Assembly (NCBI GenBank): GCA_030627905.1 | Contig: DAOVRZ010000016.1 | Span: 1,897-65,896, forward strand | Reading direction: 5' to 3' | Source: Halanaerobiales bacterium | GTDB lineage: Bacteria > Bacillota > Halanaerobiia > DY22613 | Length of the DNA stretch: 64,000 nucleotides | In this document: in pieces, positions 1,161 to 46,886 of the stretch | Numbering within the stretch: position 1 is the first letter of the stretch | Layout: each line of letters begins with the position of its first letter | Made by a program: the position numbers and the translations under genes | The notes under the pieces: model-generated | What the model was told of the DNA's origin: nothing | The model's input: only the letters and a program-made list of their open reading frames with translations | The model's database searches: none

Positions 1161-1260
1161 AGACTTTACCTGCCTTTCAAATTCTCTGTCACCTCCACCA
1201 ATAATATAGAGGGTTTTCCTTCTAAAAATATCTTTAAATAGCTAAGCTATTATAATTTTT

Positions 1261-3195
<1,935 letters not shown>

Positions 3196-3265
3196 TTAAA
3201 CTGATGAAACCGTGATATGATCACGGTTACTAAATAATCTGCTTCACAGCTTTTTAATAAAAAAA

Positions 3266-4899: not shown

Positions 4900-5014
4900 A
4901 TCTTTTGAGTTAAGACCCCCACTTATAGAAGTGGGGGGAATTGTTTTTAATCTTCAGTGGGGGTAGAATCCCCTACTGAAGCCCCGATGTTCAGCTTTAG
5001 CTGGACGAGTTCAC
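4900..5014 (-). repeat. Family-1 intergenic repeat (115 bp, triple hairpin), copy 1
   Basis: Near-identical by eye to 11761-11875, 14647-14761, 26235-26349 and 35359-35460. Starts 6 nt after the dnaN stop. Confidence 0.9.
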
Positions 5015-13814: not shown

Positions 13815-13827
13815 TTTCCCGGGAAAT
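13814..13827. other. Noc-binding site (NBS) palindrome
   Basis: ATTTCCCGGGAAAT matches the B. subtilis NBS consensus exactly. It fills the mnmG-rsmG spacer. Confidence 0.7.
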
Positions 13828-13829
13828 AG

Positions 13830-14564
13830 GTGATGGAAGTGAATGATAATAGAGAAATTTTAATTTCTGGAATTAATGAACTTGGAGTACAAATTGATTC
13901 GAATCAATTGGATAGTTTTGATAAATTTATGTTTTTAATGCTAGAATGGAATGAAAAAATAAACTTAACAGCCATCACTGATTCAAAGAGTATTTTAGTA
14001 AAACATTTTATGGATTCTATTACGCCATTACTTTTCATCAACAAATATAATCTTGATTTTAGTTCTATTCTTGATATGGGGACAGGTGCTGGTTTCCCTG
14101 GCATACCTTTAAAAATAATATTGCCAGATACTTCGTTAGTATTAGTTGATTCTCTAAAAAAACGAATTAATTATTTAGAAGTTATTATTGATGAGTTGAA
14201 TCTTGAAAATGTCAGTACTGTGCACGGTCGTGCAGAAGAAGTTGGCCAAGATCAAACTTTACGCCAAAATTCTACAATTGTATTGTCTAGAGCAGTCGCT
14301 TCTATGAAGGTTCTTGCTGAGTATTGTTTACCTTTGGTAAAAGTTGGTGGATATTTTTTAGCCTTTAAGGGACCTGGAGTAAAAGAAGAACTAAATGATG
14401 CTAAAAATGCTTTTAAAATTTTGGGTGGGGAAATAATTGGTGTTGAAAATTTACAACTTCCACTTATTAATGACCCAAGGACTTTAGTTTTTGTAAAGAA
14501 AATCAAAGCCACTCCAAATAAATATCCACGTCGCCCTGGAATACCTAAAAAGGCTCCTCTTTAA
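13830..14564 (+). CDS. rsmG: 16S rRNA (guanine527-N7)-methyltransferase RsmG (GidB)
   Basis: 244-aa ORF with SAM motif ILDMGTGAGFPGIPLKI. Synteny mnmE-mnmG-rsmG. Confidence 0.95.
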   Translation: MMEVNDNREILISGINELGVQIDSNQLDSFDKFMFLMLEWNEKINLTAITDSKSILVKHFMDSITPLLFINKYNLDFSSILDMGTGAGFPGIPLKIILPDTSLVLVDSLKKRINYLEVIIDELNLENVSTVHGRAEEVGQDQTLRQNSTIVLSRAVASMKVLAEYCLPLVKVGGYFLAFKGPGVKEELNDAKNAFKILGGEIIGVENLQLPLINDPRTLVFVKKIKATPNKYPRRPGIPKKAPL

Positions 14565-14571
14565 AATAACC

Positions 14572-14640
14572 AAAAAAGGATGGCAAATAACGTTCCTCGG
14601 AAACATCCGTGATGCGACTTATATCTGCTATCCTTTTTTT
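14572..14640 (+). terminator. Long-loop hairpin with T-tract downstream of rsmG
   Basis: aaaaaaggatggca ... tgctatccttttttt. Resembles the hairpin at 24245-24320. Confidence 0.5.
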
Positions 14641-14646
14641 AGTTTT

Positions 14647-14761
14647 GTCTTTTGAGATAAGACCCCCACTTCTATAAGTGGGGGGAATTGTTTTTAATCT
14701 TCAGTAGGGGTAGAATCCCCTACTGAAGCCCCAATGTTCAGCTTTAGCTGGACGAGTTCAC
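14647..14761 (-). repeat. Family-1 intergenic repeat, copy 3
   Basis: Same 115-bp element, inverted relative to copies 2, 4 and 5. Confidence 0.9.
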
Positions 14762-14868
14762 TAGAGAATTCGGTATATTTGAAAATTCCATTTTAAAAGA
14801 AGAAGGAACTGAATCAATTTTGACGAAATTATTTCTTTGAAGAAGAAAAAAGGGGGTTAACCTTTTAT

Positions 14869-15669
14869 ATGTTATCACCATTTATGAAAAAAGAAGATCG
14901 AATTAAATATGTCGATATTGAAAAGATTCTCCCTAATCGTTATCAACCACGAATAGTCTTTAATGAGACCGACTTAGAAGAGCTAGCTCAATCTATACGA
15001 GAACATGGAATTATTCAGCCATTAACTGTTCGCAAGTTTGAAGATGGGTTTGAATTGATAGTTGGTGAAAGACGATTACGAGCTAGTAAAATTGTTGGTT
15101 TGGAACAGGTACCTGTCATTATCAAAGATTTTGATGATGAAGAGAGTGCTGCGATAGCGTTAGTAGAGAATCTTCAGAGAAAAGATCTTGATTTTATTGA
15201 AGAAGCTTTCGGATTTTCTAAATTAATTGACCAATTTGGGATGACCCAACAAGAACTTGCACAAAAAGTGGGAAAAAGCCAATCTACTGTCGCCAATAAA
15301 CTTCGCCTTCTAAAATTACCTAAAGATATTCACAAAACTTTGCTTGAAAATAAGTTGACAGAAAGACACGCTAGAGCTCTACTTAAGTTGGAAAATGAAG
15401 AAGAACAGCGATTTGTGTTGAAAAATATCATAGAAAGAGATATGAATGTTCGAGATACCGAAATTCTTATCGAAAGTATAAAAAATGGTCCGAAGGATGA
15501 AAAGAAAAAGTCAGTTATTCGAGTGTTTAAAGATTTACGTCTTTATACTAACACTTTATGGGCTACTATAAAACAGTTAAAGCAAGGAGGTTTAGATATC
15601 AAAGTACAGGAGATTGAGAATGATGAGTTTATCGAATTTAAGATTAGATTACCAAAAAATAAAGAATGA
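14869..15669 (+). CDS. noc: Nucleoid occlusion protein Noc (ParB paralogue)
   Basis: ParB-like N-terminal domain (GIIQPLTVRK...VGERRLRASK). The HTH reads GKSQSTVANKLRLLKLP, the Noc-type signature. Sits upstream of soj-spo0J. Confidence 0.85.
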   Translation: MLSPFMKKEDRIKYVDIEKILPNRYQPRIVFNETDLEELAQSIREHGIIQPLTVRKFEDGFELIVGERRLRASKIVGLEQVPVIIKDFDDEESAAIALVENLQRKDLDFIEEAFGFSKLIDQFGMTQQELAQKVGKSQSTVANKLRLLKLPKDIHKTLLENKLTERHARALLKLENEEEQRFVLKNIIERDMNVRDTEILIESIKNGPKDEKKKSVIRVFKDLRLYTNTLWATIKQLKQGGLDIKVQEIENDEFIEFKIRLPKNKE

Positions 15670-15682
15670 AGGGGTGAAGTAA

Positions 15683-16444
15683 ATGGCAAAGACTTTATCG
15701 ATTGTGAATCAGAAAGGTGGGGTTGGAAAAAGTACAACTGCTGTGAATTTGGGTGCTTGTCTTGCTAAGCTCAATCATAAGGTTCTTTTAGTAGACATCG
15801 ATCCTCAAGGTAATGCTAGCAGTGGAGTGGGAATAGATAAATCTTCTTTAGAATTTTGTATCTATGATGTTTTGGTTCATGACATTGATGTGACTGATGT
15901 CATTACTAAATCCAGTACAGAAAATTTAAGTATTATTCCTGCTACGATAGATCTAGCCGGTGCAGAGATTGAACTTGTTTCTATTTTTTCTCGGGAGTCT
16001 AGACTAAAGATGGCTTTGAGTAAAGTAAAAGATAATTTTGATTATATTCTAATAGATTGTCCTCCTTCATTAGGTTTACTTACTTTAAATGCATTGACTG
16101 CTTCAGATTTTGTACTTGTTCCTATACAGTGTGAATATTACGCCCTTGAAGGGCTAGGACAATTAATGCGTACTATTCAGCTTGTTCAAAAACATTTAAA
16201 TCCAACATTAGAGATTGATGGTGTTGTTCTCACTATGTTTGATGCCAGAACTAACTTAGCTCAACAAGTTATTGATGAAGTGAAAAATCACTTTCAAGAT
16301 TCTGTATATCAAACAATTATTCCTCGCAATGTACGTTTGAGTGAAGCCCCTAGTTTTGGTGAACCTATTATCTCGTATGATCCAAACTCACGAGGTGCTA
16401 AAGCTTATATGAGTCTTGCTAAGGAAGTGATTGGTAATGAGTAA
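15683..16444 (+). CDS. soj: ParA family chromosome partitioning ATPase Soj
   Basis: Deviant Walker A NQKGGVGKSTTAVNL. 253 aa. Confidence 0.95.
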   Translation: MAKTLSIVNQKGGVGKSTTAVNLGACLAKLNHKVLLVDIDPQGNASSGVGIDKSSLEFCIYDVLVHDIDVTDVITKSSTENLSIIPATIDLAGAEIELVSIFSRESRLKMALSKVKDNFDYILIDCPPSLGLLTLNALTASDFVLVPIQCEYYALEGLGQLMRTIQLVQKHLNPTLEIDGVVLTMFDARTNLAQQVIDEVKNHFQDSVYQTIIPRNVRLSEAPSFGEPIISYDPNSRGAKAYMSLAKEVIGNE

Positions 16445-26234: not shown

Positions 26235-26349
26235 GTGAACTCGTCCAGCTAAAGCTGAACATCGGGGCTTCAGTAGGGGATTCTACCCCCACTGAAGATT
26301 AAAAACAATTCCCACCACTTATAGAAGTGGGGGTCTTAACTCAAAAGAT
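26235..26349 (+). repeat. Family-1 intergenic repeat, copy 4
   Basis: Starts 4 nt after the upstream stop codon. Confidence 0.9.
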
Positions 26350-26509
26350 AAAACGGTAAAATAATTATTAGCTTTTTCTTTATTTCTAAGAGAAAGCCTT
26401 CTTAAGATGTGCAGGAAAATGCTAACCTGTTAAAGAAGTTTATGATATTATACAGCTTGAATTGAAATAAATTAGGATATATTAAAGAGGTAAAAATAAG
26501 GGAGAGTGA

Positions 26510-33338: not shown

Positions 33339-35291
33339 ATGAAGGATTTAATTCGACGGATCTTCAATAAAGATGGTCTGGATGAGCATGAGTTAGAGCT
33401 AAATCAGTTACGTCGACAGATTACTGCAATTTATAGTTTAATTTCGAATTTATATGGTGCAGATAAATTAGTCTTAAAAGCAGGTAAGTTGGAAGCGTTG
33501 AATTTGATGCGTTCGACAAAAATTGCTGACCGTGTTTTAGCATTACAAAGAATTGTGTTTGAAGATCCTACTATCGATGGAATTCTAGAAGAAAAGGAAA
33601 TTCCACGGATTATTGATGAGATTAATGAAGAAATTGCCGATATTATTGCACGTAAAACTGTTGAAGATAAAATTGAACGTCAGATTTCAGAGAAAATGCA
33701 AGAAAAACATAATGAATATATTCAAGAGATTAAAAGACAAATAATTCGCGAATCTGAAGGAGGAACGGAAAGTCCTCAAACTCTTAAGAAATACGCTGAG
33801 CTAGAGAAGTTAGAGGCTAAAGGTCTTTCACGGTCAGCAATGGAGTTACTTCGTCCAGTTTCTTTAGAAGAAATTGTTGGTCAAGAAAGAGCCATTAAAG
33901 CATTAATGTCTAAAATTGCTTCTCCTTTTCCACAGCATGTTATTTTATATGGGCCTCCTGGAGTTGGGAAAACTACGGCTGCTCGCTTAGCATTAGAGGC
34001 TGCAAAAAAAATGTCTCGACCCCCTTTTGATGAAGATGCGAAATTTATAGAAATAGATGGTACAACCATTAGGTGGGATCCAAGGGAAGTAACAAATCCT
34101 TTGCTTGGATCTGTTCATGATCCAATCTATCAGGGTGCAAAAAGGAGTTTTGCTGATACAGGTATCCCAGAACCTAAACCAGGTTTAGTTACCGAAGCAC
34201 ATGGTGGAGTTCTCTTTATTGATGAGTTGGGTGAGATGGATCCAATGCTCCAAAACAAACTTTTGAAAGTATTAGAGGATAAACGAGCTTATTTTGAGTC
34301 ATCATATTATGACCCTACAGATAAGAATGTGCCTCAGTATATTAAAAAGCTATTTGATGAAGGAGCACCAGCAGATTTTATTTTGATTGGTGCAACTACA
34401 CGTGATCCAGGTGAGATTAGTCCTGCGTTTAGATCTCGATCTGCTGAGGTGTTTTTTGAACCTTTGACATCAGAGGATATTACAAAAATTGTTCATAACG
34501 CTGGTGAAAAGTTGAATGTAGAGTTGGAGCCTGGTGTAGCTGAAGTTGTGAGTCTTTATACTATTGAAGGACGTAAAGCGGTTAATATTTTAGCTGATGC
34601 TTATAGTCTAGCATTATATGATTTAGGTAATACAATAGATAAAGAGGAAAAACCTAAAATACGAATAACTAAAGATTTAATTTATGAAGTGGCTCAGATC
34701 AGTCGTTTGACTCCTTATGTTAGTGTTAAGGCTTCTGATACGTTGGAAGTTGGTAAAATTTTTGGTCTGGGTGTAAGTGGTTATTTGGGATCAGTGATTG
34801 AAATTGAAGCGATTGCTTTTCCATCAACAGAAAAGGGAAAAGGTCGTCTACGTTTTAATGAAACTGCTGGTAGTATGGCGAAAGATTCTGTTTTTAATGC
34901 AGCATCAGTTGTTAGAAAACTGACAGGTAAAGATATTGCCGATTATGATATTCATGTAAATATAGTTGGTGGAGGTCGGATTGATGGTCCTTCTGCTGGT
35001 ACAGCGATTCTTTTAGCAATTATAAGTGCTATCGAAAAACGTCCAATCCGTCAAGATATTGCAATTACAGGTGAAATTTCTATTCAAGGACAAGTTAAGC
35101 CAGTTGGTGGAGTTTTTGAAAAAATTTATGGTGCACGTCAAGCGGGAATTAGACAGGTTTTTGTTCCAAAAGATAATGCAAAGGATGTACCAAGTGATTG
35201 TGATGATTTAGAAGTTATGATAGCAGATCGTGTGGAGGATATTATTGATATTGTAATGCCTCCAGTAAAAGAAAATATAAAGGTAAGTTAA
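33339..35291 (+). CDS. Lon-family ATP-dependent protease (LonC-type, sporulation-associated)
   Basis: AAA+ Walker A GPPGVGKTT, Walker B VLFIDELGEMD, and C-terminal Lon protease domain with DGPSAGTAILLAI. Confidence 0.85.
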   Translation: MKDLIRRIFNKDGLDEHELELNQLRRQITAIYSLISNLYGADKLVLKAGKLEALNLMRSTKIADRVLALQRIVFEDPTIDGILEEKEIPRIIDEINEEIADIIARKTVEDKIERQISEKMQEKHNEYIQEIKRQIIRESEGGTESPQTLKKYAELEKLEAKGLSRSAMELLRPVSLEEIVGQERAIKALMSKIASPFPQHVILYGPPGVGKTTAARLALEAAKKMSRPPFDEDAKFIEIDGTTIRWDPREVTNPLLGSVHDPIYQGAKRSFADTGIPEPKPGLVTEAHGGVLFIDELGEMDPMLQNKLLKVLEDKRAYFESSYYDPTDKNVPQYIKKLFDEGAPADFILIGATTRDPGEISPAFRSRSAEVFFEPLTSEDITKIVHNAGEKLNVELEPGVAEVVSLYTIEGRKAVNILADAYSLALYDLGNTIDKEEKPKIRITKDLIYEVAQISRLTPYVSVKASDTLEVGKIFGLGVSGYLGSVIEIEAIAFPSTEKGKGRLRFNETAGSMAKDSVFNAASVVRKLTGKDIADYDIHVNIVGGGRIDGPSAGTAILLAIISAIEKRPIRQDIAITGEISIQGQVKPVGGVFEKIYGARQAGIRQVFVPKDNAKDVPSDCDDLEVMIADRVEDIIDIVMPPVKENIKVS

Positions 35292-35322: not shown

Positions 35323-35351
35323 AAAGCCAGTGCAAAAGCACTGGCTTTTTT
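35323..35351 (+). terminator. Rho-independent terminator after the lon-family gene
   Basis: aaagccagtgc aaaa gcactggcttt followed by ttt. Confidence 0.8.
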
Positions 35352-35358
35352 CATGAAA

Positions 35359-35460
35359 GTGAACTCGTCCAGCTAAAGCTGAACATCGGGGCTTCAGTAG
35401 GGGATTCTATTAAAAACAATTCCCACCACTTATAGAAGTGGGGGTCTTAACTCAAAAGAT
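35359..35460 (+). repeat. Family-1 intergenic repeat, copy 5 (13-nt internal deletion)
   Basis: Lacks the 3' arm of hairpin 2 (cccccactgaaga). Otherwise almost identical to copy 4. Confidence 0.85.
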
Positions 35461-35539
35461 TAATTTTAGTATTGGAACATCCTTTAGACTAGAGGTATAT
35501 AATAAATTAATATAAAAATTTCTAAAGGAATGATTCAAT

Positions 35540-36280
35540 ATGAATATACTAGAACAATTATATGAAGCTGCCCTATATAGAAGTAAAAACCTTGATGAGG
35601 ATAAGTTTATTATCCGTGGAATATGGAATATAGATTTATTATTTAAGCCAAATGTTTATGACAGAACATTTAGTTATGAATTACTTGTAATACAGACGTT
35701 GAATCAAGGTGCTTGTTATTGTTATAATGGCAAACCTAAGATTGATCATGAGTTGATTGGGAAAGATGCAAGATGTGTGAAGGTAGATAATTGTAATATT
35801 AAAATTGCTCTATTAGATTCTGTTTATTCTCTTTTTGAATCTAGTCCTACAAAAGAATTTGTGTTGGATGGTTATTCAAAAGAGAAATCGGAACAAAGGG
35901 CAGAAATAATAGTTTCAGAGATTTTATTTCAGTTAAAAGATATAACAAATAGAAAACCCAGTGTAGTTAATATTGGAGTGGTGGGGAATATAATTAAGAA
36001 ACTTAAAAGTTCAAACATCGAAGTATATGCAACAGACTTAGATAAAAATATTATTAATAAAGATATAAATGGTGCAATGGTTAAAAACGGGATACAAAAC
36101 AATATGGAAATGATTCAAAAATGTGATTTAGCACTTGTAACAGGAATGACTTTATCATCTGGAGCATGGTTTGCAGAAGAGTATTGCAATTCTTTTGATA
36201 TTGATGCTGTAATTAGTGAGCCTTTTCCTTTTTATATTTTTGGAGGAAAAAGTATTATAAGAGTGTTTAGGCCACAATAG
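35540..36280 (+). CDS. DUF4213/DUF364-like Rossmann-domain protein
   Basis: NIGVVGNIIKKLK...VYATDL...CDLALVTGMTL pattern. The C-terminal 40 aa look atypical. Confidence 0.4.
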   Translation: MNILEQLYEAALYRSKNLDEDKFIIRGIWNIDLLFKPNVYDRTFSYELLVIQTLNQGACYCYNGKPKIDHELIGKDARCVKVDNCNIKIALLDSVYSLFESSPTKEFVLDGYSKEKSEQRAEIIVSEILFQLKDITNRKPSVVNIGVVGNIIKKLKSSNIEVYATDLDKNIINKDINGAMVKNGIQNNMEMIQKCDLALVTGMTLSSGAWFAEEYCNSFDIDAVISEPFPFYIFGGKSIIRVFRPQ

Positions 36281-36658
36281 ACCTGCAGAAGTATTAGTAA
36301 TTGATGATAACGCATATTTAATAAGAGAACGTAGCTCATTCAAAGACTATATATACAAGCAATTCATTTCAGAGTCTTTGAATGAGTAGTTTAAAAGTGT
36401 CCAGTCGTCTGGATGCTGTTTAATTATTTATTTTTTTGATTTGCATTTAGTAATCAAATAAAAAAATATCTGTTTTTTTGTTTATAAATTAAAAAATAGC
36501 AACTGTTTACTTTTTTAAATGATATGATACAATGGGACAATCATATATAAAGTATAAATTTCAAAAACACATAAAATATGAAAAAAGAAGTGTGAAAGGA
36601 ATGTAGTCTTTGAAATGAAAAAACTATTGATAAACTATATTTGAAAGGAGATATTTAA

Positions 36659-37387
36659 ATGAAGTATAATTTTTTAAGTGTAGTAATAACAATGTCAATT
36701 TTAGTTTTGTTTGTATCAATTTTTACTATAGGAGATTTATGCGCTGCTGAAAAGGATAGAGAAATAATAATTTCAGTAAAACAAGGTGATCATTATTATC
36801 ACACTATGAAGTGGTTAAATTTAATACCAATAAAAAATTCACCTCAAATGGCTTTCTGGCTTGAGGACACTTCAGGAAAGTATATAAGCACAATATATGT
36901 AACTTCCCGTAGTGCTTTATCAAAATGGAGGGGTGGCAAAAACATTCGTAGACCATCAGCATTACCTATCTGGTCACATAAGCGTGGTGTAAAATCCAGT
37001 GATGGTTATTATATGCCAGCTAAAGATAATCAACTTCCAGATGCAGTAACTGGTGCTACTCCAAACGAATCTTTTAGTAAAGTATGGAAAATGCCTGAAG
37101 ATGTTAAATCTGGTACATATGTTTTACGAGCAGAGTTTAATCATTCATATGACTATAATGACAATTATGCGAAAGATGACATTGAAGGAGATGTATCTGG
37201 GGAACCTTCAATTCTCTGGGAAGTAGAGATCGAGTTTGGGGATGAGGAATCAAAAGTGTTGATGCAGCCAGTAGGGCATGGACATAGAACTGGTGAGAAT
37301 GGTGAAATTTATAGAGAGTTAGATAGTTTAAGTACAGCTATAAGTATTATTGAATCAATAGAAGTTTGGTATACATCAGGAAAATAA
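36659..37387 (+). CDS. Secreted/membrane-anchored protein, DUF2271-like
   Basis: N-terminal signal or TM segment (FLSVVITMSILVLFVSIF). FWLEDTSGKYISTIYV...PDAVTGATP resembles DUF2271 from recall. Confidence 0.4.
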   Translation: MKYNFLSVVITMSILVLFVSIFTIGDLCAAEKDREIIISVKQGDHYYHTMKWLNLIPIKNSPQMAFWLEDTSGKYISTIYVTSRSALSKWRGGKNIRRPSALPIWSHKRGVKSSDGYYMPAKDNQLPDAVTGATPNESFSKVWKMPEDVKSGTYVLRAEFNHSYDYNDNYAKDDIEGDVSGEPSILWEVEIEFGDEESKVLMQPVGHGHRTGENGEIYRELDSLSTAISIIESIEVWYTSGK

Positions 37388-37480
37388 ATATAGAGCACTT
37401 TCAACCTTATATCGTATTTTTACATTATTACAAAATATGATATAAGGTAATTTTTAAGATTTAAAAGGATGTTTTAATAC

Positions 37481-38272
37481 ATGATAGTAAGAACAGGTTT
37501 TGAGCAGGTTAAAGTAAATAAACTTTTTTATAGTTGTTATGATAGCGGTAAATTTATTAACTATGGAGGAATGGATATTTTTATTGTTACTAAACGAACA
37601 GATGATTTGATTGAGAAATACCTTAATCCAGAAGAAAATAAACGTTATAATTCTCTTTCATCAACTAAATTACGTTATCAGTTTTTGGCTGGTAGGATTG
37701 TAGTTAAAAGAATGGTGAATATTTTTTTTAAAAAAAGTAAACAAATTAATACAGATGTAAGGGATATAATTGTTCGTAATGTTGAGAAAGGAAATGAAAA
37801 AGGAAGACCTTATATTTATATTCCTTCACAATCCGATCATGGATTAAATATATCTATAACCCATTCTAAAGATTATGTTGCCAGTGTAATTGGAGAATCT
37901 TTTATTGTGGGAATTGATTGTGAAGAATGCTATAAGCGTGATCATTCATTTATTTCCCTGGTATTTACTAATAATGAATGGGAGTTGTGTAATACAATAT
38001 TTGCAGATTTAGAAGAGCATAATCGAATAACTTTGTTATGGATACTTAAAGAATGTTTGGTCAAAGCGATTGGTATTGGATTTCTCCTGGGATTTAAAGC
38101 TTTTGAATTATATTTAGATGAACTTAATAAAAATATATATGTTAAGTTCCATGAAAAAATGATACCATATGTACCAATAAAGTTATCATTTATACAATTT
38201 TATTATGGCTTTTTAAATAAATCATGTTTTTCTATTGCTGTATTAAAAATTTGCGATAAATATAAATTATAA
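37481..38272 (+). CDS. 4'-phosphopantetheinyl transferase (Sfp type)
   Basis: ISITHSKDYV, GIDCE and WILKECLVKAIGIG (W..KE...K motif). Confidence 0.75.
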   Translation: MIVRTGFEQVKVNKLFYSCYDSGKFINYGGMDIFIVTKRTDDLIEKYLNPEENKRYNSLSSTKLRYQFLAGRIVVKRMVNIFFKKSKQINTDVRDIIVRNVEKGNEKGRPYIYIPSQSDHGLNISITHSKDYVASVIGESFIVGIDCEECYKRDHSFISLVFTNNEWELCNTIFADLEEHNRITLLWILKECLVKAIGIGFLLGFKAFELYLDELNKNIYVKFHEKMIPYVPIKLSFIQFYYGFLNKSCFSIAVLKICDKYKL

Positions 38273-38292
38273 AAACATTAGGAGGTTTTAAT

Positions 38293-39150
38293 GTGATTAT
38301 AAGTTTTAGCAAAGATATGTGTATTGGGTGTGGGATTTGTGTAGAAGGTTGTGTTGAAGGTGTATTGGTTAATAGAGGAAAGAAAAATACTCCAGAGGCT
38401 GTGAAACCTGAAAAATGTATTAAATGCGGTCATTGTGTAGCTCTTTGTCCTTCTGATGCAATTGTTCATCATAAGATGGATATGGAACAATTTATACCTA
38501 TTAAAAAAGCTGTAGAGATTACAGATGATGCAATGGAGAATTTTCTTGGTGCGAAACGTTCGATCAGACGTTTTTCGGACAAAGTTGTAGAAAAAGAGAA
38601 GATTGAACGGTTATTAAAGGTTGGTAGGATGGCTCCTAGTGATAATAACTCTCAGGAAAGAGATTTTATTGTTCTTTCTGATCAGAATTTAATTCAACAT
38701 TTGGAAAATAAAATTGTAGAAAGTTATAAAAATTTATTATTTTGGATGAATCCAGTGATGAGAAAAATTTGTTCTCTCTTTACACCAAATTTAATGAGAG
38801 AATTAGAAAAAGTTGTGCTAGATTTCAAGGGATTAATTGAACTCGCTGAAAAAGGAGAAAAGCCAGTTTTTAGGGGTGCACCTCATGTTATCTTTATTTA
38901 TGCTCCAAAGGGAAATATCATGGCTAAAGATAACTGTCTTGCATCTCAGGATTATATGATGATACAAGCACAGACTATGGGATTGGGTACCTGTATCATT
39001 GGGTATGCAACTGGAGTACCTAAAGTTTTAGCGAAATTTTTAAAAATACCTAAAAATCATAAAGTATTTGGGGCTATAACTGTTGGTTATCCAAAATTAA
39101 CTTTTAAGAAGACAGTTGCGCGTGAAAGGGGAGAAGTTGTTTGGTTATAA
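38293..39150 (+). CDS. 2x[4Fe-4S] ferredoxin-domain / nitroreductase-family fusion protein
   Basis: CIGCGICVEGC and CIKCGHCVALCP clusters, followed by a nitroreductase fold (KRSIRRFSDK...APSDNNSQ). Confidence 0.8.
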   Translation: MIISFSKDMCIGCGICVEGCVEGVLVNRGKKNTPEAVKPEKCIKCGHCVALCPSDAIVHHKMDMEQFIPIKKAVEITDDAMENFLGAKRSIRRFSDKVVEKEKIERLLKVGRMAPSDNNSQERDFIVLSDQNLIQHLENKIVESYKNLLFWMNPVMRKICSLFTPNLMRELEKVVLDFKGLIELAEKGEKPVFRGAPHVIFIYAPKGNIMAKDNCLASQDYMMIQAQTMGLGTCIIGYATGVPKVLAKFLKIPKNHKVFGAITVGYPKLTFKKTVARERGEVVWL

Positions 39151-39202
39151 TTTATGAATTAGTAAATAAAACTTAATAACACTAAGATGTATCGGAGGTT
39201 AA

Positions 39203-40663
39203 ATGATGAATAAAAAATGTGAATTTTATCCAATTACAATTATAGGACATGGATGTGTTTATCCACCAGATGGATATGATAGTGAGAAATTTTAGAAAAA
39301 TGTTTTGTCGGGAAAATCAGGAATCAGTGAAATACCAAAAGAAATTTGGAATTGGGAATATTATTACGATGAAGATCGTAGTGCTTTAGATAAAACATAT
39401 TGTAAACTAAGTGGAATTATTGACAATTATCAGTTTCCATATGATAAATTTAATATTAAAGCTGAAGACATTGAATATTTCAATAGATGTAATTTAATGG
39501 TTTTAGATACAGTTTTACAGGCTTTTGCTTCTTCTGATATAGATCCAAAAGAAATTAACCTTGAAACGACAGCCTTCGCATTAGGAAATATGTTGGGAGA
39601 CGATTTTTTCCCTGAAACATCATTGAACTATCGGGCTAAAGAAGCATTTTATTATCTTCAACAAAGTGATGACTTTCAAAAGCTTGATAGTGAAGTTAAA
39701 AAAGAGATAGAGAAAAAGTTTTTTGAAGAGGTCGAAACTAAATTTGCAAAATTAGATGCTTCTAATTTTAAAACTGCTTCTAATAGTGCATTAGCTAAAA
39801 ATGTAACTGATTTTTTGGGAATTAAAGGTGAAGTTCAAATAATTGACGGAGCTTGTTCAGCGGGTGCTCTAGTAATAAATGAAATGATTAAGGTTTTACA
39901 TGATAAAACCTGTGATGTTGTCATAGCTTCAGCAGTTTTAGGTAGTTTGAATGTAACTGGTAATTTGAGTTTTGCTAAGATTGGTGGTATTTCTGGTACT
40001 CACAGTGCACCATTAGATATTTCAGCAAATGGTTTAATTCCAGGAGAAGGTGTTGGAACAATAATTTTGAAGCGTCTTGATGATGCTATTAGAGATAATG
40101 ATAGAATTTTTGGTGTTATTTGTGGAAGTGGAGTTTCTAGTGATGGTAAAGGAAAGGCTATCTATGCTCCAAGTTCTGAGGGACAAGCCAGATGTATTAA
40201 AGAGTCTTTAAATAGAGTTGGATTGAAACCAGTAGATATTGATTACTTTGAAGCTCATGCTACTGCAACACCTGTAGGAGATGCGGTAGAACTCAATACA
40301 TTAAAAAGCATATTTGAAGGTGAAGATTTTCGTAAAAATTCTGTAGCTATCAGTTCTGTTAAATCACAAATTGGGCATACATTTTCAGCTGCAGGTATGG
40401 CTAATTTGATAAAAGTTCTAAAAGCCTTTGAGAATGATCTGATGCCACCTATTCATAATTTTACAGAACCAAATCCTAAAATGAATCTTGAAAACTCACC
40501 ATTTTATGTGAACAAAGAAGCTAAAAAATGGGATAAAAAACCAAATAATACACCAAGAAGATGTAGTGTTAATGCGTTTGGCTTTGGTGGTGTAAATGCT
40601 AATATTGTTGTAGAAGAGTATTTAGAAGAATATCATAAAGAATTGGTAGAAAAACTGGAATAA
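39203..40663 (+). pseudogene. Type I PKS ketosynthase domain gene with in-frame TAG at 39293-39295
   Basis: MMNKKCEFYPITIIGHGCVYPPDGYDSEKF*KNVLSGKSGISEIP: the stop replaces the conserved Trp of the KS FW..l..G motif. The rest is intact: DGACSAG (Cys), EAHATATPVGD, KSQIGH. Confidence 0.75.
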
Positions 40664-41299
40664 TTATCAAGTGATGTTAAACAGGAAGATACTGAGATTG
40701 CAATTGTAGGTGTGGGTTGTATTAACGGTAGAGCAAATAATGTAGAAGAATATTGGAATACAATTAATCAATCTAACAAACTTTTTAGTACTTTTCCCGA
40801 GGGACGCTGGAATGAAGATGTAAATAAAATATTCTCGGATGCATTTAATGAAAAAGAAGTTTTGGGAAGTTTTATTGAGAATTTTGAATTTCCCTGGATG
40901 AAGTTTAGGATTCCGCCTAATGTTTTGGGACAGATTGACAATGGACAATTAATGGCAGCTGATGAAGCTATTGATGATTATGGTAAAGATAAATTGGTAC
41001 CTGCTAGAACGGCTGTATATGTTGGTGGTATGCAAGGTATGGAATCTAGTATTTTGGCTAATCTACGTATTCGTCAAGAAGAGTATGTTCAAATTTTGAA
41101 GAATATGCCTGAATTTAAGAATTTAGATTCTAAGACACAGGAGTCAATAATCTCAGATCTACAGAGTCAAATTCGTCAGTATATACCTAAGATAGAAGAA
41201 GATACATTGCCTGGTTTTATGGATAATATTGTTGCTGGAAGAATTGCTAATTATTTTAATGTGCATGGAGTAAATATGTTTATAGATTCTTCTTTGTGA
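40664..41299 (+). pseudogene. Second KS-like (CLF-like) domain, N-terminal ~210 codons only
   Basis: In the same frame as the upstream KS, separated only by TAA (40661-40663). EIAIVGVGCINGRANNVEEYW is a KS N-terminal motif. Ends FIDSSL* at the active-site position. Confidence 0.7.
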
Positions 41300-44108
41300 G
41301 AGTATAGGAATTAAAGCTGATCTTTATTTAGGTCATAGTCTTGGTGAAATTCCAGCTTTAGCAGCTAGTGGAGTGTTATCATTTGAAGACGGATTTCGGA
41401 CTACATATTATCGTGCCATGGCATTGAACCAAATTGAAGGAAAAAAACGTGGTGGTATGATTAGTATTTCTACTACTCAGGATGATCCTGTTCTGCGAAA
41501 AGTATTTGCTGGTGTATCTGATTATTATACAATTAGTCTGGTAAATGCTCCAGATCAAATAGTTGTTTCTGGTGATTTAAAAGCTATTAGAGAAATTGAA
41601 AAGCATTGCGAGGAAGAAAAAATTGGAGGTCGTGTTTTACCTGTGTCTCATGCTTTTCATTCTGAATTGTTAAGACCAGCACTTGCATATTTTGAAGAGA
41701 AGCTTAAATTAAATACTTGGAATGCTCCTAAAGTTTCAGTATTATCAACTATAAATGGTCAGATTTATGATAAGGACTTTATCCTTTCTGGTAAGATGCC
41801 AGCTTTTCTAGCCAGTCAATTAGTTACGCCATTTAGTTTTATGGATACTATAAAAAAGATCTTTAAAGATTTTAAGATCCGTATTTATATTGAAGTGGGT
41901 CCAAGAGATATCCTGACCAAATTGGTTAAGAAAATTTTAGATGATGAAGAGATTATTAGTATTTGTTCAAATAAGCCTTCTTTAGGAGATTTGGTTTCCT
42001 TTGATAGATTAAAAGCATATTTAAAGGTTCATAAAGTTATTATGAAAGGGAGAGAAGATATGAGCAGTATTATTTCAGTTAAAACAGATGCAGATCTTTT
42101 GAAAGATGAACTATTACGTATCGCCAATAGATATACTGGTTATCCTCATTCAGTTATTGATTTTGATAAAACCTTGCATATGGGTTTGGCAATTAATAGT
42201 TTTACATTGTCAGATATTGTTTCACATATTCGAAAAGAATATGAATTATCAGAAGATGAATTAAGCAATGTAAAAGAGATTACTTTAAGGGAAATTTTTG
42301 AAATAATTACAGAGAAAAAAGGTATTTCTATTGAAGTAGCTCCTGCATTAGAATCTAAAAAAGTAGAGGCAAATATAAGCCATGATGAAGTATCAGAAAC
42401 AGTATATGAGATAATTCAGGCAAAGACAGGCTATCCAGCAGATATGTTGGAAGGAGATTTTGATTTAGAAGCAGATTTAGGGATAGACTCAGTAAAACAA
42501 GCAGAAATTATTGGTCAGGTACGTGAAAAGTATGTATTTGAACAGCGTGAAGATATCAATATTAAAGATTTAAATACAATTAACAAGATTATAGAATTTA
42601 CCATGGGACAGGTTAATAACAATGTTGAGAGGGAGACTTCTTTTATTGAGAAGGAAAAACTTGATCCCAAAAAAGTGATAGAAGAGCTTTATACTGGTGA
42701 GGATAAAACTTTAAGGTATGTATCAGTAACCATGGAGAAAGTTTATGACGAAACTAAAGGGAAACCATTTAAGTTAGAAGGTAAAAACTTTGTCATTGTA
42801 GAAGACCAGCTAGATGGTAATTTAACTAAAGAATTAGTAAAACTTTTACAAGAGAAAAATGTTAAGGTATGCGTTGTTGCCGATAGTTCTAATACTTATG
42901 AAGTACCTACAGTTCAGATTAACTGGTCAGATGATGGCGAAATTGGTTCTGGTTTATTGAGAACATTCCAGGAAGCTAAGAATATCTTGAATGTGGTTCA
43001 TGGTATGATTAACTTATATTCTTTAAAAGAAATCTCTATGAGTAAACTTACACCAGAGGAATGGAGTATTGAAACGGAAAAGAATTTCCGGGTTCAATTC
43101 TTTGCAAGTAAGGTATTTTATTCTGATTGGGAAAAATCAGAACTTGAGTGTGGATGTTTTGGAGCAACCAATATTGGTGGAGTTTTTGGACTTGAAAGTT
43201 CTACAAGTGATAACCCTATGGGTGCTTTGCTGGCTGGATTTTTTAAGAGCCTTCAAAAAGAACTAGATGTAACTGCAAAAATTGTTGATTTTACGATATT
43301 GGATTCTCCAGCAGATGTTGCAAAAATACTGATAAAAGAGTTTAGTTTGAATGAGAATTTAATTGAGATTGGATACACAGAAAGAAGAAGAAAGACGATT
43401 CAGGTAATCCCTAAGAAATTAGATATTAAGGAACAATCTAAGGCTCTTGATATTGATGATAACAGTGTAATCATCGTATCGGGTGGGGGTAGGGGTATTA
43501 TTTATGAATGTGTTAAAGGATTAGCAAAATTGCATAATCCACATATTATTATAACAGGTCGTACTTCTATCCCTACTTGGGATGAAGATTGGATTAAGAT
43601 GAGTGAAGAGGAATTTGTTCAGTACAGAATTGAATTTCTTAAGAAAATGAAAAGAGAAAATCCAAAGGCAACACCGATTTTAATTGAAAGAGAATATGTT
43701 AAACTAGCTCGTGCAAGAAAACTGTATTCTAACTTATATGACTTGCAACAGCAAAATTATAAAGTTTCTTATGTTGCGTGTGATGTTGCAGATAGAGAAG
43801 CAGTAAAAATATTGATTAAGGATATCAAGAAAAAGTACGGAAAAATAGATGGTATTGTTCATGGAGCAGGTTTAGAATCTTTTGGATCTATACCTAAAAA
43901 ACCAGTTCAACACACTTTAAATGTTGTTAGAGTGAAAGTTAACGGAATGTATAACTTATATAATGAGATTAAAGATGACTCTATCAAATTTTTTATAAAC
44001 TTTGGTTCTATATCAGGACGTTTTGGAATGGATGGACTGCATGGGGAGAAGTTGGAATGGCTGCAATTGAAGATGTCCGCCGTGTTCAGGAAGGGCAACG
44101 TGGTCTAA
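41286..44108 (+). pseudogene. PKS fragment: AT (C-terminal part from GHSLGE)-ACP-like-ACP-KR
   Basis: GIKADLYLGHSLGE, VSHAFHS (AT). HMGLAINSF (degenerate ACP). DLEADLGIDSVKQAEI (ACP). VSGGGRGIIYE...CDVADRE...IVHGAGL...GSISGRFG (KR). The frame is lost after GRFGMDG. Confidence 0.75.
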
Positions 44109-44719
44109 CTTATTTGAGTGTAGCTGAAGGTGTTCAGAAATTTATGAGAGAACTAATTTTTGATGCTGGATGTCCAGAAGTATTAATTTTCGGTAGTTTA
44201 GGTACAAATAGTCCACTAGGCCAACTTGATTTTTTAGATCAAGAGAGAAAAGAAGTTGTTGCAATCTATAAGGAAGATGGAATGATCAGTGATCGTACGA
44301 GAAATAATTTGCTTGAAAGGGTAACCAAATTCGAAGAAGGTAAATCTATGATAGTAACGAATGAAATTCATTTAGATGAGGATCTTTTCTTGTTAGATCA
44401 TAGGGTAGATGGAGACTATGTATATCCTGGAGTATTACATGTGGAAACTTTCCTACAACTTGCTAGAACTATGGTGGAAAAAATAGGGAATAAATTACCT
44501 TTAACAAAACTATATGACGTTAATTTCATGAAATTTATTAAACATTTTGAAAAAAATCCACTAATTCTTAGAGCGATTGGTACTTATGAGAAGATAACTC
44601 CTACAGAAATTGAAATTAGCACAAAATTAAAGTCAGATTTCACTAACTCAAAAGGTGTAGTTTTAGAAAAGATAGAGTACACTCAAATGGTAGAGTTCTT
44701 TTCAGTACAGAGAAAGTAG
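44039..44719 (+). pseudogene. PKS fragment: KR C-terminal end plus first half of the DH hot-dog
   Basis: AWGEVGMAAIE (KR tail), then LLDHRVDGDYVYPGV (DH HxxxGxxxxP motif). Different frame from the upstream KR. Confidence 0.7.
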
Positions 44720-45225
44720 ATGTTCCTAAACCTTCTATTCAGTTGAATGGGGTATTAGAAAAATCAATACCAATGGATCTTGATAAATTCTATACTCAAG
44801 CAGAAAAGTTCATTTACTTTGGACCAGCTTTCTTACACATTACTTATGCAGGTTATGTTGGTAAAAATGAGGCTATTATTGAAGCGATTGTTCCAGATAA
44901 CCATGGTATTTTTGCCCATACTTTATTCCCTGAAACTATTATTTCACCAATACTTTTGGATAATGCATGCCGAAATACAATTTTATTAGATTATCATCAG
45001 GACGGATATATTTGTGTTCCAAGAAAAATTACCGAAAGTATTCTATACCGTCCTTTTGTGAAACACGAGAAAGTATATGCATATACAAAGTTGCTGGAGC
45101 AAGAGGGTGATCTTGTACACTTTGATATTGAAATTATTGATGCAAATAATCTTTTATGTATGGTTATCCGTGATTTAGTTATGGTTAGGATTGACAAAGA
45201 TAATGATGATTTCGAGCTGTTATAG
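44660..45225 (+). pseudogene. PKS fragment: second half of the DH domain (frameshifted)
   Basis: The frame continues ...RVHSNGRVLFSTEKVDVPKP..., then ISPILLDNACRN (DxxxQ/H-like). The shift lies in the A-run near 44668. Confidence 0.65.
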
Positions 45226-45281
45226 GAATACAAGGTAAAATGCACTCTATCATTGAAGAATGAAATACGTAATTATAAATG

Positions 45282-45316
45282 AAACCCCTATAAATAATAT
45301 TATTTATAGGGGTTTT
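45282..45316. terminator. Bidirectional terminator between the PKS island and the replication operon
   Basis: aaacccctataaataa ta ttatttataggggttt, flanked by A/T tracts. Confidence 0.8.
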
Positions 45317-45319
45317 ATT

Positions 45320-45493
45320 CTACTTAAATATTTTCATAAGCCTTTCTTCAAAAAGTTCTGGTGGATAATCATTTAACCGATCAATTAAGTTAATCACTTT
45401 TTCAAGTTGTTCTTCTGTTATTAATCCATGTTCATAAAGGGCTAAATAAGCTTCAGTAAAGTGTATGCAAAATTTCAATTCATTTTCATTCAC
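45320..45493 (-). CDS. Small 57-aa ORF, translationally coupled to the helicase gene
   Basis: The GTG at 45493-45491 overlaps the helicase stop (GGTGAATGA). Reads VNENELKFCIHFTEAYLALYEHGLITEEQLEKVINLIDRLNDYPPELFEERLMKIFK*. Ends just before the terminator. Below the ORF-track length cut-off. Confidence 0.4.
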   Translation of the reverse strand: MNENELKFCIHFTEAYLALYEHGLITEEQLEKVINLIDRLNDYPPELFEERLMKIFK

Positions 45494-46886
45494 CTGGCAT
45501 CATTCCTTCATAAGAGAGATTTTCTGGATCCAGGAAACGAGTATATTCGCCTTCAAAGAGGAGGGTAGCAGCCCCTGTAGAGCCAGTCCTTGATTTTGCT
45601 ATAATTACTTCAGCATGGTTCTCAGTTCCTTCTTCTCGGGCTTTTTCTCGAGCACCAATACTAGTGTGTGCATGACGATAAAGGAACATTACACTATCTG
45701 CAACCTCCTCGATATTTCCTGAATCACGAAGGTCAGATAGAACAGGACGTTTATCTTGTCTAGAAGCAAAGCTACGGCTAATTTGAGAAAGAAGGATGAT
45801 GGGACATTCTAATTCAGAAGCTAAGTTACGCAATTGTACGACCAATTGACCAACTTGTCTGGCTGTAGATTCGTTCTTATTGGCTTCTGATAGTGAGATT
45901 AATTGTAAATAGTCTATGATTACAAGAGATAATTTATCCATCTCTGATTTGAATTTACGCAGACGGGCGCGAATTTGAGAAAAATTTATGCCCCTTTCGT
46001 CAGAGATTAGCAGTGGTAAACTATGAAGTCGATCAAGGGCTTGAGAGATACGTTGATCTTCTTCATCGTTAGTTTCGCCTTGAGCGAATTTCCAACCATG
46101 TACCGAAGCTTCACTGATTATCATCCGATCGATAATCTCAACTGCATCCATCTCCAGACTGATTATGCCAACAGATTCTTTACGTTTTAAAATATTTTGA
46201 GCAATATTTAGAGCAAAAGTAGTTTTTCCCATAGAAGTACCAGCAGCAACGATGTTTAAATGTCCTTTTTTAAAGCCTCCAATTAGCTTATCAAGGGTCA
46301 TAAAACCTGTTCTAAGGCCAGCATCAACTTCGCCATGTTTTCGATTTATATAGGCCTCAAAGGCCTCTAAAAGTGCTTCGTCCATAGTGTAAACGTGTTT
46401 ATTTACATCTGCAATTTCTGTAGTTGCTTTAAAAATTACTTCTTGAGCCTTAGTCTGGTATTGATCTATTGTTAAATTTTCTTCCTGAACCGTTTTTTCA
46501 ATTATTTGAGCTGCTTTGATTAATTGATTTTTATGATAATGGGTTTTGATCAATTCAACAGTAGGTTCTAATTCAGAAAGGGAAGCATAACCACTGGTTA
46601 ATTCTTCAATCAGCTCATCAGGATCATTGAAGATCCCTTCTTTTTTTAGCTGAATGTAGAGTTTGGTTCTTGAAAGGCGACCATTAGCTCGATATTGTTC
46701 TAATAACATCTCATATATTATTTTGGTGCGAGAGTTGGTGAAATGCTCAGGTTTTAGAGAGTCTGCAAGTTCATCAAATTTTTCAGGGTGTTGAAGGAGA
46801 ATTCCAAGGATCTGGAATTCTTGACGATGGATATCCAACTTTAATTGTAAATTATTTTTTGGTAGTTGAGATTTTTCAATCGCCAT
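45486..46886 (-). CDS. dnaB: Replicative DNA helicase (DnaB family; divergent)
   Basis: RecA-like core: AAGTSMGKTTFALNIAQN (Walker A), VIIDYLQLI (Walker B), LSQISRS...DKRPVLSDLRDSGNIEEVADSVMFL. The N-terminal domain is less canonical. Confidence 0.85.
   Translation of the reverse strand: MAIEKSQLPKNNLQLKLDIHRQEFQILGILLQHPEKFDELADSLKPEHFTNSRTKIIYEMLLEQYRANGRLSRTKLYIQLKKEGIFNDPDELIEELTSGYASLSELEPTVELIKTHYHKNQLIKAAQIIEKTVQEENLTIDQYQTKAQEVIFKATTEIADVNKHVYTMDEALLEAFEAYINRKHGEVDAGLRTGFMTLDKLIGGFKKGHLNIVAAGTSMGKTTFALNIAQNILKRKESVGIISLEMDAVEIIDRMIISEASVHGWKFAQGETNDEEDQRISQALDRLHSLPLLISDERGINFSQIRARLRKFKSEMDKLSLVIIDYLQLISLSEANKNESTARQVGQLVVQLRNLASELECPIILLSQISRSFASRQDKRPVLSDLRDSGNIEEVADSVMFLYRHAHTSIGAREKAREEGTENHAEVIIAKSRTGSTGAATLLFEGEYTRFLDPENLSYEGMMPGE

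Follow-up and report, generated by a model that had tools for sequence, protein, structure and literature searches.

A probable dead member of a split PfaA-like lipid synthase family in the lon-dnaB gap of a Halanaerobiales bacterium

What kind of biosynthetic system lies between a lon-family protease gene and the replicative helicase gene in the genome of a Halanaerobiales bacterium (GenBank assembly GCA_030627905.1), and what remains of it? The window, which here means the whole stretch of 64,000 nucleotides that was analysed (contig DAOVRZ010000016.1, positions 1897-65896), comes from a metagenome bin of 5.57 Mb in 208 contigs with a GC content of 33.6%. A first-pass annotation, made from the letters of the window, had placed an AT-rich island at 35540-45225 with genes for a multidomain type I polyketide synthase (PKS), a 4'-phosphopantetheinyl transferase (PPTase), an iron-sulfur nitroreductase, a DUF364-like and a DUF2271-like protein, and had read the whole as a decaying lipid or polyene cassette acquired horizontally. 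The comparisons described here indicate that the inserted DNA is, with good probability, a dead member of a distinct and apparently uncharacterised family of split PfaA-like 'secondary lipid' synthases, situated in a variable gap between lon and dnaB.

The synthase spans 39203-45225 on the forward strand. Pfam matches, together with an alignment of seven homologues of its C-terminal part (A1) and one of six homologues of its N-terminal part (A2), give the domain order ketosynthase (KS), chain-length factor (CLF), acyltransferase (AT), acyl carrier protein (ACP)-like domain, ACP, ketoreductase (KR) and dehydratase (DH), which is the order that the first-pass annotation had called and which the NCBIfam models also support. 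The Pfam matches comprise the N- and C-terminal ketoacyl-synt domains, the N-terminal half of a second KS, the C-terminal part of an AT, PP-binding, KR and PKS_DH_N/PS-DH. The KS domain (39203-40663) keeps its Cys/His/His residues and is interrupted by a TAG and closed by a TAA. In frame with it, and lacking a start codon of its own, is the N-terminal half of a CLF-like second KS (40664-41296, ketoacyl-synt profile positions 9-172). In every homologue this second KS is without the active-site Cys, having D-x-D/S-x-x-S-F in its place, and it is therefore regarded as a CLF. The AT domain (41298-41960, Acyl_transf_1 profile positions 104-284) carries its GHSLGE motif at 41331-41348. It is followed by an ACP-like domain (42087-42317) without the Ser for phosphopantetheine attachment; all homologues in A1 read LALN-type residues here, and the serine-less domain appears to be a trait of the family and not a lesion. 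A single true ACP (42381-42614, PP-binding 39 bits, also aligned in A1) has DLGIDSVKQAEI at 42474-42509. The KR domain runs up to GRFGMDG (43464-44036; KR match and A1), while 44033-45225 holds the C-terminus of the KR (WTAWGEVGMA...) and, with matches to PKS_DH_N and PS-DH, a DH of PKS type. Among the NCBIfam models, TIGR02813 (PfaA) gives the highest score for each of the KS, the CLF and the ACP-KR part, at 268, 58 and 220 bits against a cut-off of 1010, these scores being obtained from fragments. This makes the protein a PfaA-like (secondary-lipid-type) iterative synthase and not a modular PKS, in agreement with the earlier suggestion of an iterative type like that of polyunsaturated fatty acid (PUFA) synthases.

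Lesions were mapped by aligning stop-to-stop frames and their translations to the homologues in A1 and A2, and five were seen. The first is an in-frame TAG at 39293-39295, at the position of a Trp that is invariant in all six KS-CLF homologues. The second, an in-frame TAA at 40661-40663, sits in the KS-CLF linker with the frame going on beyond it; KS and CLF form one protein (835-981 amino acids) in each of the six homologues. The third is a deletion junction at 41286-41297 on the forward strand, where the CLF is cut at its active-site position, the frame changes and reading resumes about 12 residues before GHSLGE, so that approximately 280 C-terminal residues of the CLF and 115-125 N-terminal residues of the AT are removed according to A1 and A2. 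In the fourth, about 31 codons are gone after GRFGMDG (44016-44036), including QVDYAAGAD with the catalytic Tyr of the KR; the frame changes at a GGATGG microhomology at about 44033 and reading resumes at WTAWGEVGMA. In the fifth, the DH is split by a frameshift in a run of A at approximately 44665-44680, where the homologues are continuous (...VLEKDRLHS.G...). There is possibly a sixth lesion, as one true ACP is present against two to four in tandem in every intact homologue, which may be due to either a real collapse of the repeat or a collapse in assembly. Recoding of TAG as Trp and programmed frameshifting were rejected as explanations, because the stretch with the KR Tyr, the C-terminal half of the CLF and the N-terminus of the AT are physically missing. 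The synthase is dead in the analysed genome. The first-pass annotation, which had it broken in at least five places in a system that is probably decaying, was right in this respect, the five lesions agreeing in three assemblies (discussed below). The only intact open reading frames (ORFs) left in the insert are those of the PPTase, the nitroreductase and the DUF2271-like protein.

When the synthase fragments are read through as a composite, the best matches are proteins of approximately 1550-1690 amino acids with the architecture AT-ACPn-KR-DH (P0001-P0005), which are 41-43% identical over the whole remaining length and come from Clostridium sp. FP2, Paenibacillus macerans, P. oralis, Desulfotomaculum arcticum and metagenomes. 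The window has the AT-(pseudo-ACP)-ACPn-KR-PS-DH protein of this split family in a truncated form with deletions, while its KS (44-55% identity) and the N-terminal half of its CLF (35-53%) resemble the KS-CLF proteins of the family, in a gene that is broken here. Eleven intact loci were found and compared (L001, L002, L021, L022, L035, L023/L024 and L103-L106), sources including Clostridium sp. FP2 (L001), D. arcticum (L002), Streptomyces (L023/L024, annotated for core genes only) and P. macerans (L103). All eleven possess a fused KS-CLF protein, an Aminotran_1_2 protein of about 400 amino acids and an AT-ACPn-KR-DH protein, and a PPTase is present in ten, with none seen on the short L106 contig. 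No enoyl reductase (ER, PF03060), thioesterase or FabA-type DH is listed in the eleven loci. In a scan for the ACP motif common to PfaA proteins, most of the matches listed were ordinary PfaA-like loci; the family numbers at least eleven loci and its true spread is under-sampled.

A redox protein is also a frequent member of these clusters. The 2x[4Fe-4S]-nitroreductase fusion (285-287 amino acids, 47-54% identical to that of the window) is found in four of them (L002, L021, L103 and L104), a TM1586-type nitroreductase in L022 and L035, a Flavodoxin_5-Fer4 protein in L035, L105 and, distally, in L001, and a Flavodoxin_2/FMN_red protein in L001 and L104. Most intact loci thus carry a nitroreductase-fold or flavodoxin/Fe-S partner, and in the window a nitroreductase-fold Fe-S flavoprotein of this kind is encoded at 38293-39150. 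Acetyl-CoA carboxylase subunits are encoded in L001 and L105. The PPTase and the Fe-S nitroreductase, which had been proposed as partners of the synthase from the window sequence, therefore do accompany it in other genomes. Homologues of the DUF364 and DUF2271-like genes are in none of the eleven intact loci.

The aminotransferase common to the intact loci scores approximately 390-408 bits on the Kbl, BioF and serine palmitoyltransferase (SPT) models, under the equivalog cut-off of each, and is accordingly classed as an alpha-oxoamine synthase (AOS) whose specificity is left unassigned. The cluster-linked AOS proteins are 53-62% identical to each other. No adjacent AOS gene is present in the window, against its presence in all eleven intact loci. 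Elsewhere in the analysed genome only two AOS homologues were identified, both on other contigs, with 46% and 40% identity compared to the 53-62% among cluster-linked proteins; these are probably housekeeping genes of the BioF/Kbl type. In six intact clusters (L001, L035 and L103-L106) the order is KS-CLF, AOS, AT-ACPn-KR-DH, which places the AOS gene at the very position of the deletion junction in the window, and its absence is for this reason read as loss. On the L001 sequence, one deletion that reached from the active-site position of the CLF to about residue 115 of the AT would span approximately 2.45 kb and include the whole AOS gene. We infer that the AOS gene, the C-terminal half of the CLF and the N-terminus of the AT would have been removed by one such deletion.

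The gene content of the intact clusters suggests how a complete system may operate. The PPTase would arm the tandem ACPs, the AT would load malonyl units and the fused KS-CLF would elongate the chain iteratively, with the KR and the PKS-type DH processing each round to give enoyl intermediates. The AOS, a stand-alone, pyridoxal phosphate (PLP)-dependent enzyme of the BioF/Kbl/SPT family, would then condense the chain decarboxylatively with an amino acid and so free it from the ACP, the product being a 2-amino-3-ketone, a lipid resembling a sphingoid base. The assignment of chain release to the AOS follows from the lack of a thioesterase in the clusters together with the invariant presence of the AOS. 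The nitroreductase-fold or flavodoxin/Fe-S partner would supply a reduction that the synthase cannot do itself; as the family has no ER domain, enoyl reduction in trans is the likeliest role and a first guess. The split family thus probably makes PKS-derived amino-ketone (sphingoid-like) lipids. Once account is taken of the AOS, which is deleted here and so was unseen in the first reading of the window, an amino-ketone lipid would be predicted in place of a fatty acid or polyene.

Some further genes are found at individual intact clusters. In L103 (P. macerans) a gene for a 715-amino acid FAD amine-oxidase-like protein (13619-15766) lies between those for the PPTase and the Fer4-nitroreductase, which fits a nitrogen-containing product. 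A Zn-dependent phospholipase C-like gene (approximately 250 amino acids) is located near the clusters in two unrelated loci, L022 (115-864) and L104 (15619-16377), and in L022 a GT4 glycosyltransferase gene stands beside it. The phospholipase C-like and glycosyltransferase neighbours hint at a product that is a further decorated membrane lipid.

The complete pathway, in which a split PUFA-like iterative PKS and an AOS would make sphingoid-like lipids with a ferredoxin-fused nitroreductase-fold protein as trans-ER in anaerobic Bacillota, Paenibacillus and Streptomyces, is put forward as a tentative proposal, possible rather than probable. A number of points weigh against it and against the reading of the locus on which it builds. 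The amino-lipid product and the off-loading by the AOS are putative and deduced from gene content. The role of the nitroreductase would be the weakest step and is a guess, as the fold is also suited to dehydrogenation or other chemistry, and action on the amino-ketone product would be a serious alternative; in addition, the type of redox partner varies between the intact clusters. As for the window, the loss of the AOS is deduced from the KS-CLF/AOS/AT order of the six clusters, and the gene order seen here (PPTase, nitroreductase, KS-CLF, then AT) matches no single intact cluster exactly.

With regard to known systems, the family is closest in architecture to the Pfa PUFA synthases and 'secondary lipid synthase' clusters (Shulse & Allen 2011, PMC3098273). 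These are likewise iterative type I systems with TIGR02813 as best model, and shared features are the tandem ACPs with the LGIDS motif, the KS-CLF didomain and the dedicated Sfp-type PPTase. However, in the split family the KS-CLF is on a separate protein from AT-ACPn-KR-DH, while PfaA-type proteins are KS-AT-tandem ACP-KR(-DH); the split family also has an invariant AOS and frequently a nitroreductase-fold partner, and the window copy is a pseudogene array. Of the PfaC-type features the KS-CLF is present, but the FabA-like DH/isomerase didomain is absent from the window and from the eleven intact clusters, where the PKS-type PS-DH is the only DH found. Neither the window nor the listed genes of L001, L002 and L103-L106 include a PfaD-type ER (PF03060). 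With neither the FabA-type DH didomain nor PfaD, the system is PfaA-like without being a true PUFA synthase. Shulse & Allen (PMC3098273) also list uncharacterised secondary-lipid types, including 'Type T' of Clostridium thermocellum, which might be related, its gene content not being given in the text of that paper.

For the combination of a PKS with an AOS there is a described counterpart in SgaAB of Pseudomonas fluorescens MYb115, which makes sphingolipids, as described in PMC12134224. There a PKS is paired with a stand-alone PLP-dependent AOS that condenses the PKS-built chain with an amino acid. SgaA is described there as a monomodular PKS, unlike the split KS-CLF/AT-ACPn-KR-DH arrangement, a comparison made by description, and the passages of PMC12134224 describing the system, which report SPT activity for it, do not mention a nitroreductase partner. 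By description, SgaAB is a precedent for the logic by which a PKS and an AOS give a sphingolipid (PMC12134224). By this analogy the split family may follow the logic of a PKS-plus-AOS amino-lipid pathway, its own architecture being another, split and with tandem ACPs. Prodigiosin (MBC) biosynthesis, with PigJ (double KS) and PigH (ACP-ACP-oxoamine synthase), shares with the split family two fused KS domains, tandem carriers and release of the oxoamine-synthase type; but PigJ performs a single extension of a pyrrolyl starter without AT-KR-DH processing, and the NCBIfam PigJ model scores 124-172 bits on the KS, far under its cut-off of 900. The heterocyst glycolipid synthase HglE/HglD/HglC of cyanobacteria, compared by description only, is likewise PfaA-like and iterative with KS, CLF-like, AT, tandem ACP and KR domains, and the first-pass annotation had already pointed to this likeness. 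The oxoamine synthase and the DH of PKS type set the split family apart from it, as does an occurrence in anaerobic Bacillota and in Streptomyces. Literature searches found no paper and no published product for the split KS-CLF/AOS/AT-ACPn-KR-DH cluster family.

Although the synthase is dead, its surviving companions could still be of use to the cell. The PPTase gene (37481-38272, forward strand) encodes an intact Sfp-type enzyme of 263 amino acids (ACPS 51 bits), which shares 26-32% identity with its cluster-linked counterparts in L001, L002, L021, L022, L103 and L104 and represents the dedicated Sfp-type PPTase that corresponds to PfaE. The ferredoxin-nitroreductase fusion (38293-39150, forward strand; 285 amino acids) is likewise intact, with matches to Nitroreductase (92 bits) and Fer4 and two CxxCxxCxxxC motifs. 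Along its entire length it shares 47-54% identity with the fusions linked to the clusters of L002, L021, L103 and L104, compared to only 30-33% for the best match among 40 relatives of the analysed genome, and so it belongs with the cluster and not with the host lineage. The DUF2271-like gene (36659-37387, forward strand), also intact, encodes a protein with an N-terminal hydrophobic signal or anchor; its match to PF10029 (20.9 bits) is below the Pfam cut-off and it is 49% identical to an Orenia marismortui protein named DUF2271. The gene content given in the first-pass annotation is therefore supported, by Pfam for the PPTase and Fe-S nitroreductase and, for the DUF364 and DUF2271 proteins, by sub-cut-off matches whose homologues carry those domains or names. 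When the PDB was searched by sequence with the nitroreductase, the DUF2271-like protein and the DUF364 protein, no close relative that has been characterised was found for any of them.

It is unlikely, though worth weighing, that these pieces (the PPTase, the Fer4-nitroreductase and perhaps the KS) have been recruited to other PKS or nonribosomal peptide synthetase (NRPS) systems or to general redox metabolism. The ORFs for the PPTase, the nitroreductase and the DUF2271-like protein keep their full length and every Cys motif, the KS retains its Cys/His/His downstream of the TAG, and the genome encodes many megasynthases. However, recent inactivation would also leave long open fragments, the genome has a second Sfp-size PPTase and an AcpS, and the KS has no start codon after the TAG apart from a weak internal TTG. 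Very long open frames (1300-5600 amino acids) with KR/AT matches are found on contigs C8, C66, C80, C91, C103 and C180 of this genome, which mark it as rich in PKS/NRPS. At 5.6 Mb it is also unusually large for its class, 38 class-level relatives being mostly 2-3 Mb, and a relative of the same family (G001, 5.1 Mb) resembles it in size and in PKS/NRPS wealth.

The DUF2271-like gene had been put forward as a partner of the synthase, a proposal that the comparisons contradict: no such gene is found in any of the eleven intact clusters, and in three other contexts of its homologues (L102, L109/L110 and L111) there is no PKS nearby, the adjacent genes being either unrelated or for TetR regulators. 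On two metagenomic contigs that are unrelated to each other (L109, 6346-7720, and L111, 6389-7693) the homologues are translationally coupled to an upstream TetR-family gene. Longer homologues are fused to DUF4405 or cytochrome-b-like membrane domains.

The extent of the insert is given by comparison to relatives. Of two relatives of the same family, G002 has 2.2 kb and G001 has 1.5 kb between lon and dnaB, and the cargo there is unrelated in both. A closer relative, GCA_942492535.1 (L101), whose Lon and DnaB are 86% identical to those of the window, has the order lon, DUF364 gene (271 amino acids), ornithine/diaminopimelate (Orn/DAP) decarboxylase gene (as two ORFs), a 63-amino acid ORF and dnaB, with no synthase. 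In L101 the DUF364 and decarboxylase genes form a pair beside dnaB (1076-3212), the decarboxylase being split into ORFs of 260 and 168 amino acids. In the window the DUF364-family gene (35540-36280, forward strand) has a match to PF04016 of 18.5 bits, below the Pfam cut-off, with homologues that carry PF04016; it is 68% identical to the 271-amino acid PF04016 protein P0211 and has an in-frame internal deletion of 23 codons. It is followed by the last 40 codons of an Orn/DAP/Arg-type PLP decarboxylase (36261-36380, forward strand), identified by TBLASTN with the C-terminal decarboxylase ORF of L101 (60% identity over residues 128-167, E-value 3e-11) and with a concordant BLASTN match to L101 3078-3188. 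A terminator-like hairpin found by the terminator scan (36396-36417, forward strand) closes this unit and corresponds in position to the terminator downstream of the decarboxylase gene in L101.

The segment 35540-36420 is thus old local content. The DUF364 gene, which the first-pass annotation had counted in the cassette, is ancestral to the locus and lies outside the cassette, since its L101 orthologue sits between lon and dnaB without a synthase. What the L101 locus lacks is approximately 36440-45280, which holds the synthase together with the genes for the DUF2271-like protein, the PPTase and the nitroreductase. The insert proper is therefore about 36.44-45.28 kb, or approximately 8.8 kb, in the variable lon-dnaB gap, beginning just downstream of the hairpin and not at 35540 as had been proposed. 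With the deletion in the DUF364 gene and the decarboxylase cut to 40 codons, the whole gap is eroding by deletion.

Was the cluster gained by this lineage, or is it ancestral and lost from the relatives? We infer that it was acquired horizontally by the host lineage, and ancestry followed by loss is regarded as quite improbable, although several features are what ancestry would predict. The 9.7-kb block has a GC content of 31.5%, the genome one of 33.6%; among genome windows of 9.7 kb the block stands at the 12th percentile for GC, and its tetranucleotide distance is at the 39th percentile of 472 genome windows. It is thus typical of the genome and not compositionally foreign; composition gives no signal of transfer and 'AT-rich', as the island had been called, is no useful label. 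A search for direct repeats on either side of the insert gave only a 9-mer, neither an integrase nor a transposase gene was found to mark it, and the locus is clearly prone to deletion. On the other side, the block is missing from all 40 relatives, two of them of the same family, and from the same locus in the closer L101, and the three relatives compared at the gap each have different cargo there. No synthase orthologue was found in the 40 relatives, the best being a PfaA-like frame of 2745 amino acids with 30% identity in G020. The nearest homologues of the synthase and nitroreductase are found in Clostridia, Peptococcaceae and Paenibacillus at 42-55% identity, compared to 30-33% for the best nitroreductase within the class. 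Those island proteins that were looked up in a collection of 15 billion proteins are singletons among its 90% clusters, and so no close intact copy is known.

That the breaks are artefacts of assembly, binning or sequencing in an organism with an intact synthase is very improbable. The genome is, it is true, a metagenome bin in 208 contigs, and the assembly of short reads can merge tandem ACP repeats into one. Against this, four different kinds of lesion are present, two deletions join at in-gene positions with no repeat to mislead an assembler, and the neighbouring housekeeping genes are intact. In addition, the window, the ENA reassembly ERZ23498719 (a 66.8-kb scaffold) and the Logan assembly of SRR13892592 (a 9.9-kb contig) share 100% identity over the island and are broken into the same ORF fragments. 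The exact fragment proteins are also present in several source collections.

The flanks of the gap are as first described, a lon-family gene on the left and a replicative helicase gene on the right. The Lon-like AAA protease gene (33339-35291, forward strand; Pfam Lon_C and AAA domains) lies outside the island and its product is 80-86% identical to the orthologues of G001, G002 and L101. The DnaB-type helicase gene (45486-46886, reverse strand) is followed by DnaI-like and DnaB_2-like genes, and all sizeable ORFs between the lon-like and dnaB-like genes are on the forward strand. An ORF of 57 codons (45320-45493, reverse strand) that overlaps the stop codon of the helicase gene is coupled to it and is 77% identical to the 63-amino acid ORF of L101; equivalents of 61-67 amino acids follow dnaB in G001 and G002.

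The right end of the insert is marked by a palindromic bidirectional terminator with a 15-bp stem (45282-45315). On the left, the lon-like gene has a terminator hairpin at 35325-35352 on the forward strand (AAAGCCAGTGC-AAAA-GCACTGGCTTT, then a run of T), which was seen by direct reading of the sequence and is unlisted by the terminator pattern scan. It is followed by a copy of a dispersed intergenic repeat with a unit of approximately 110-120 nucleotides (35358-35465), identified by BLASTN against the genome itself. In that search, made with three queries, all 60 of the first 60 of 148 rows belong to this repeat, mostly at 80-89% identity; several copies are inside the window (e.g., approximately 26240-26350 and 4900-5000) and many are elsewhere in the genome. 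The copy at 35358-35465 is therefore one of a genome-wide set and no marker of the island. Of the boundary elements that had been listed, the terminator, the repeat and the bidirectional terminator on the right are all real, while the left limit drawn from them was wrong. The Logan contig covering the island also terminates within this repeat.

As it stands in the window the locus is a dead cluster and in itself ordinary, a tidy case in which acquired DNA decays by deletion within a variable gap of the chromosome. If the intact members do make a PKS-derived amino lipid, this would extend the finding of PKS-plus-AOS lipids in bacteria outside the classical sphingolipid producers, and would provide a testable role for the Fe-S nitroreductase fusions, a common group in anaerobes of which most members have no assigned function. 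Should the complete pathway hold, the nitroreductase fold would have a new task in the building of lipids, and there would be a second route by way of a PKS to molecules resembling sphingolipids. The value of the finding lies in the coherent and widely scattered cluster family to which the locus points, which is a reasonable target for natural-product work.

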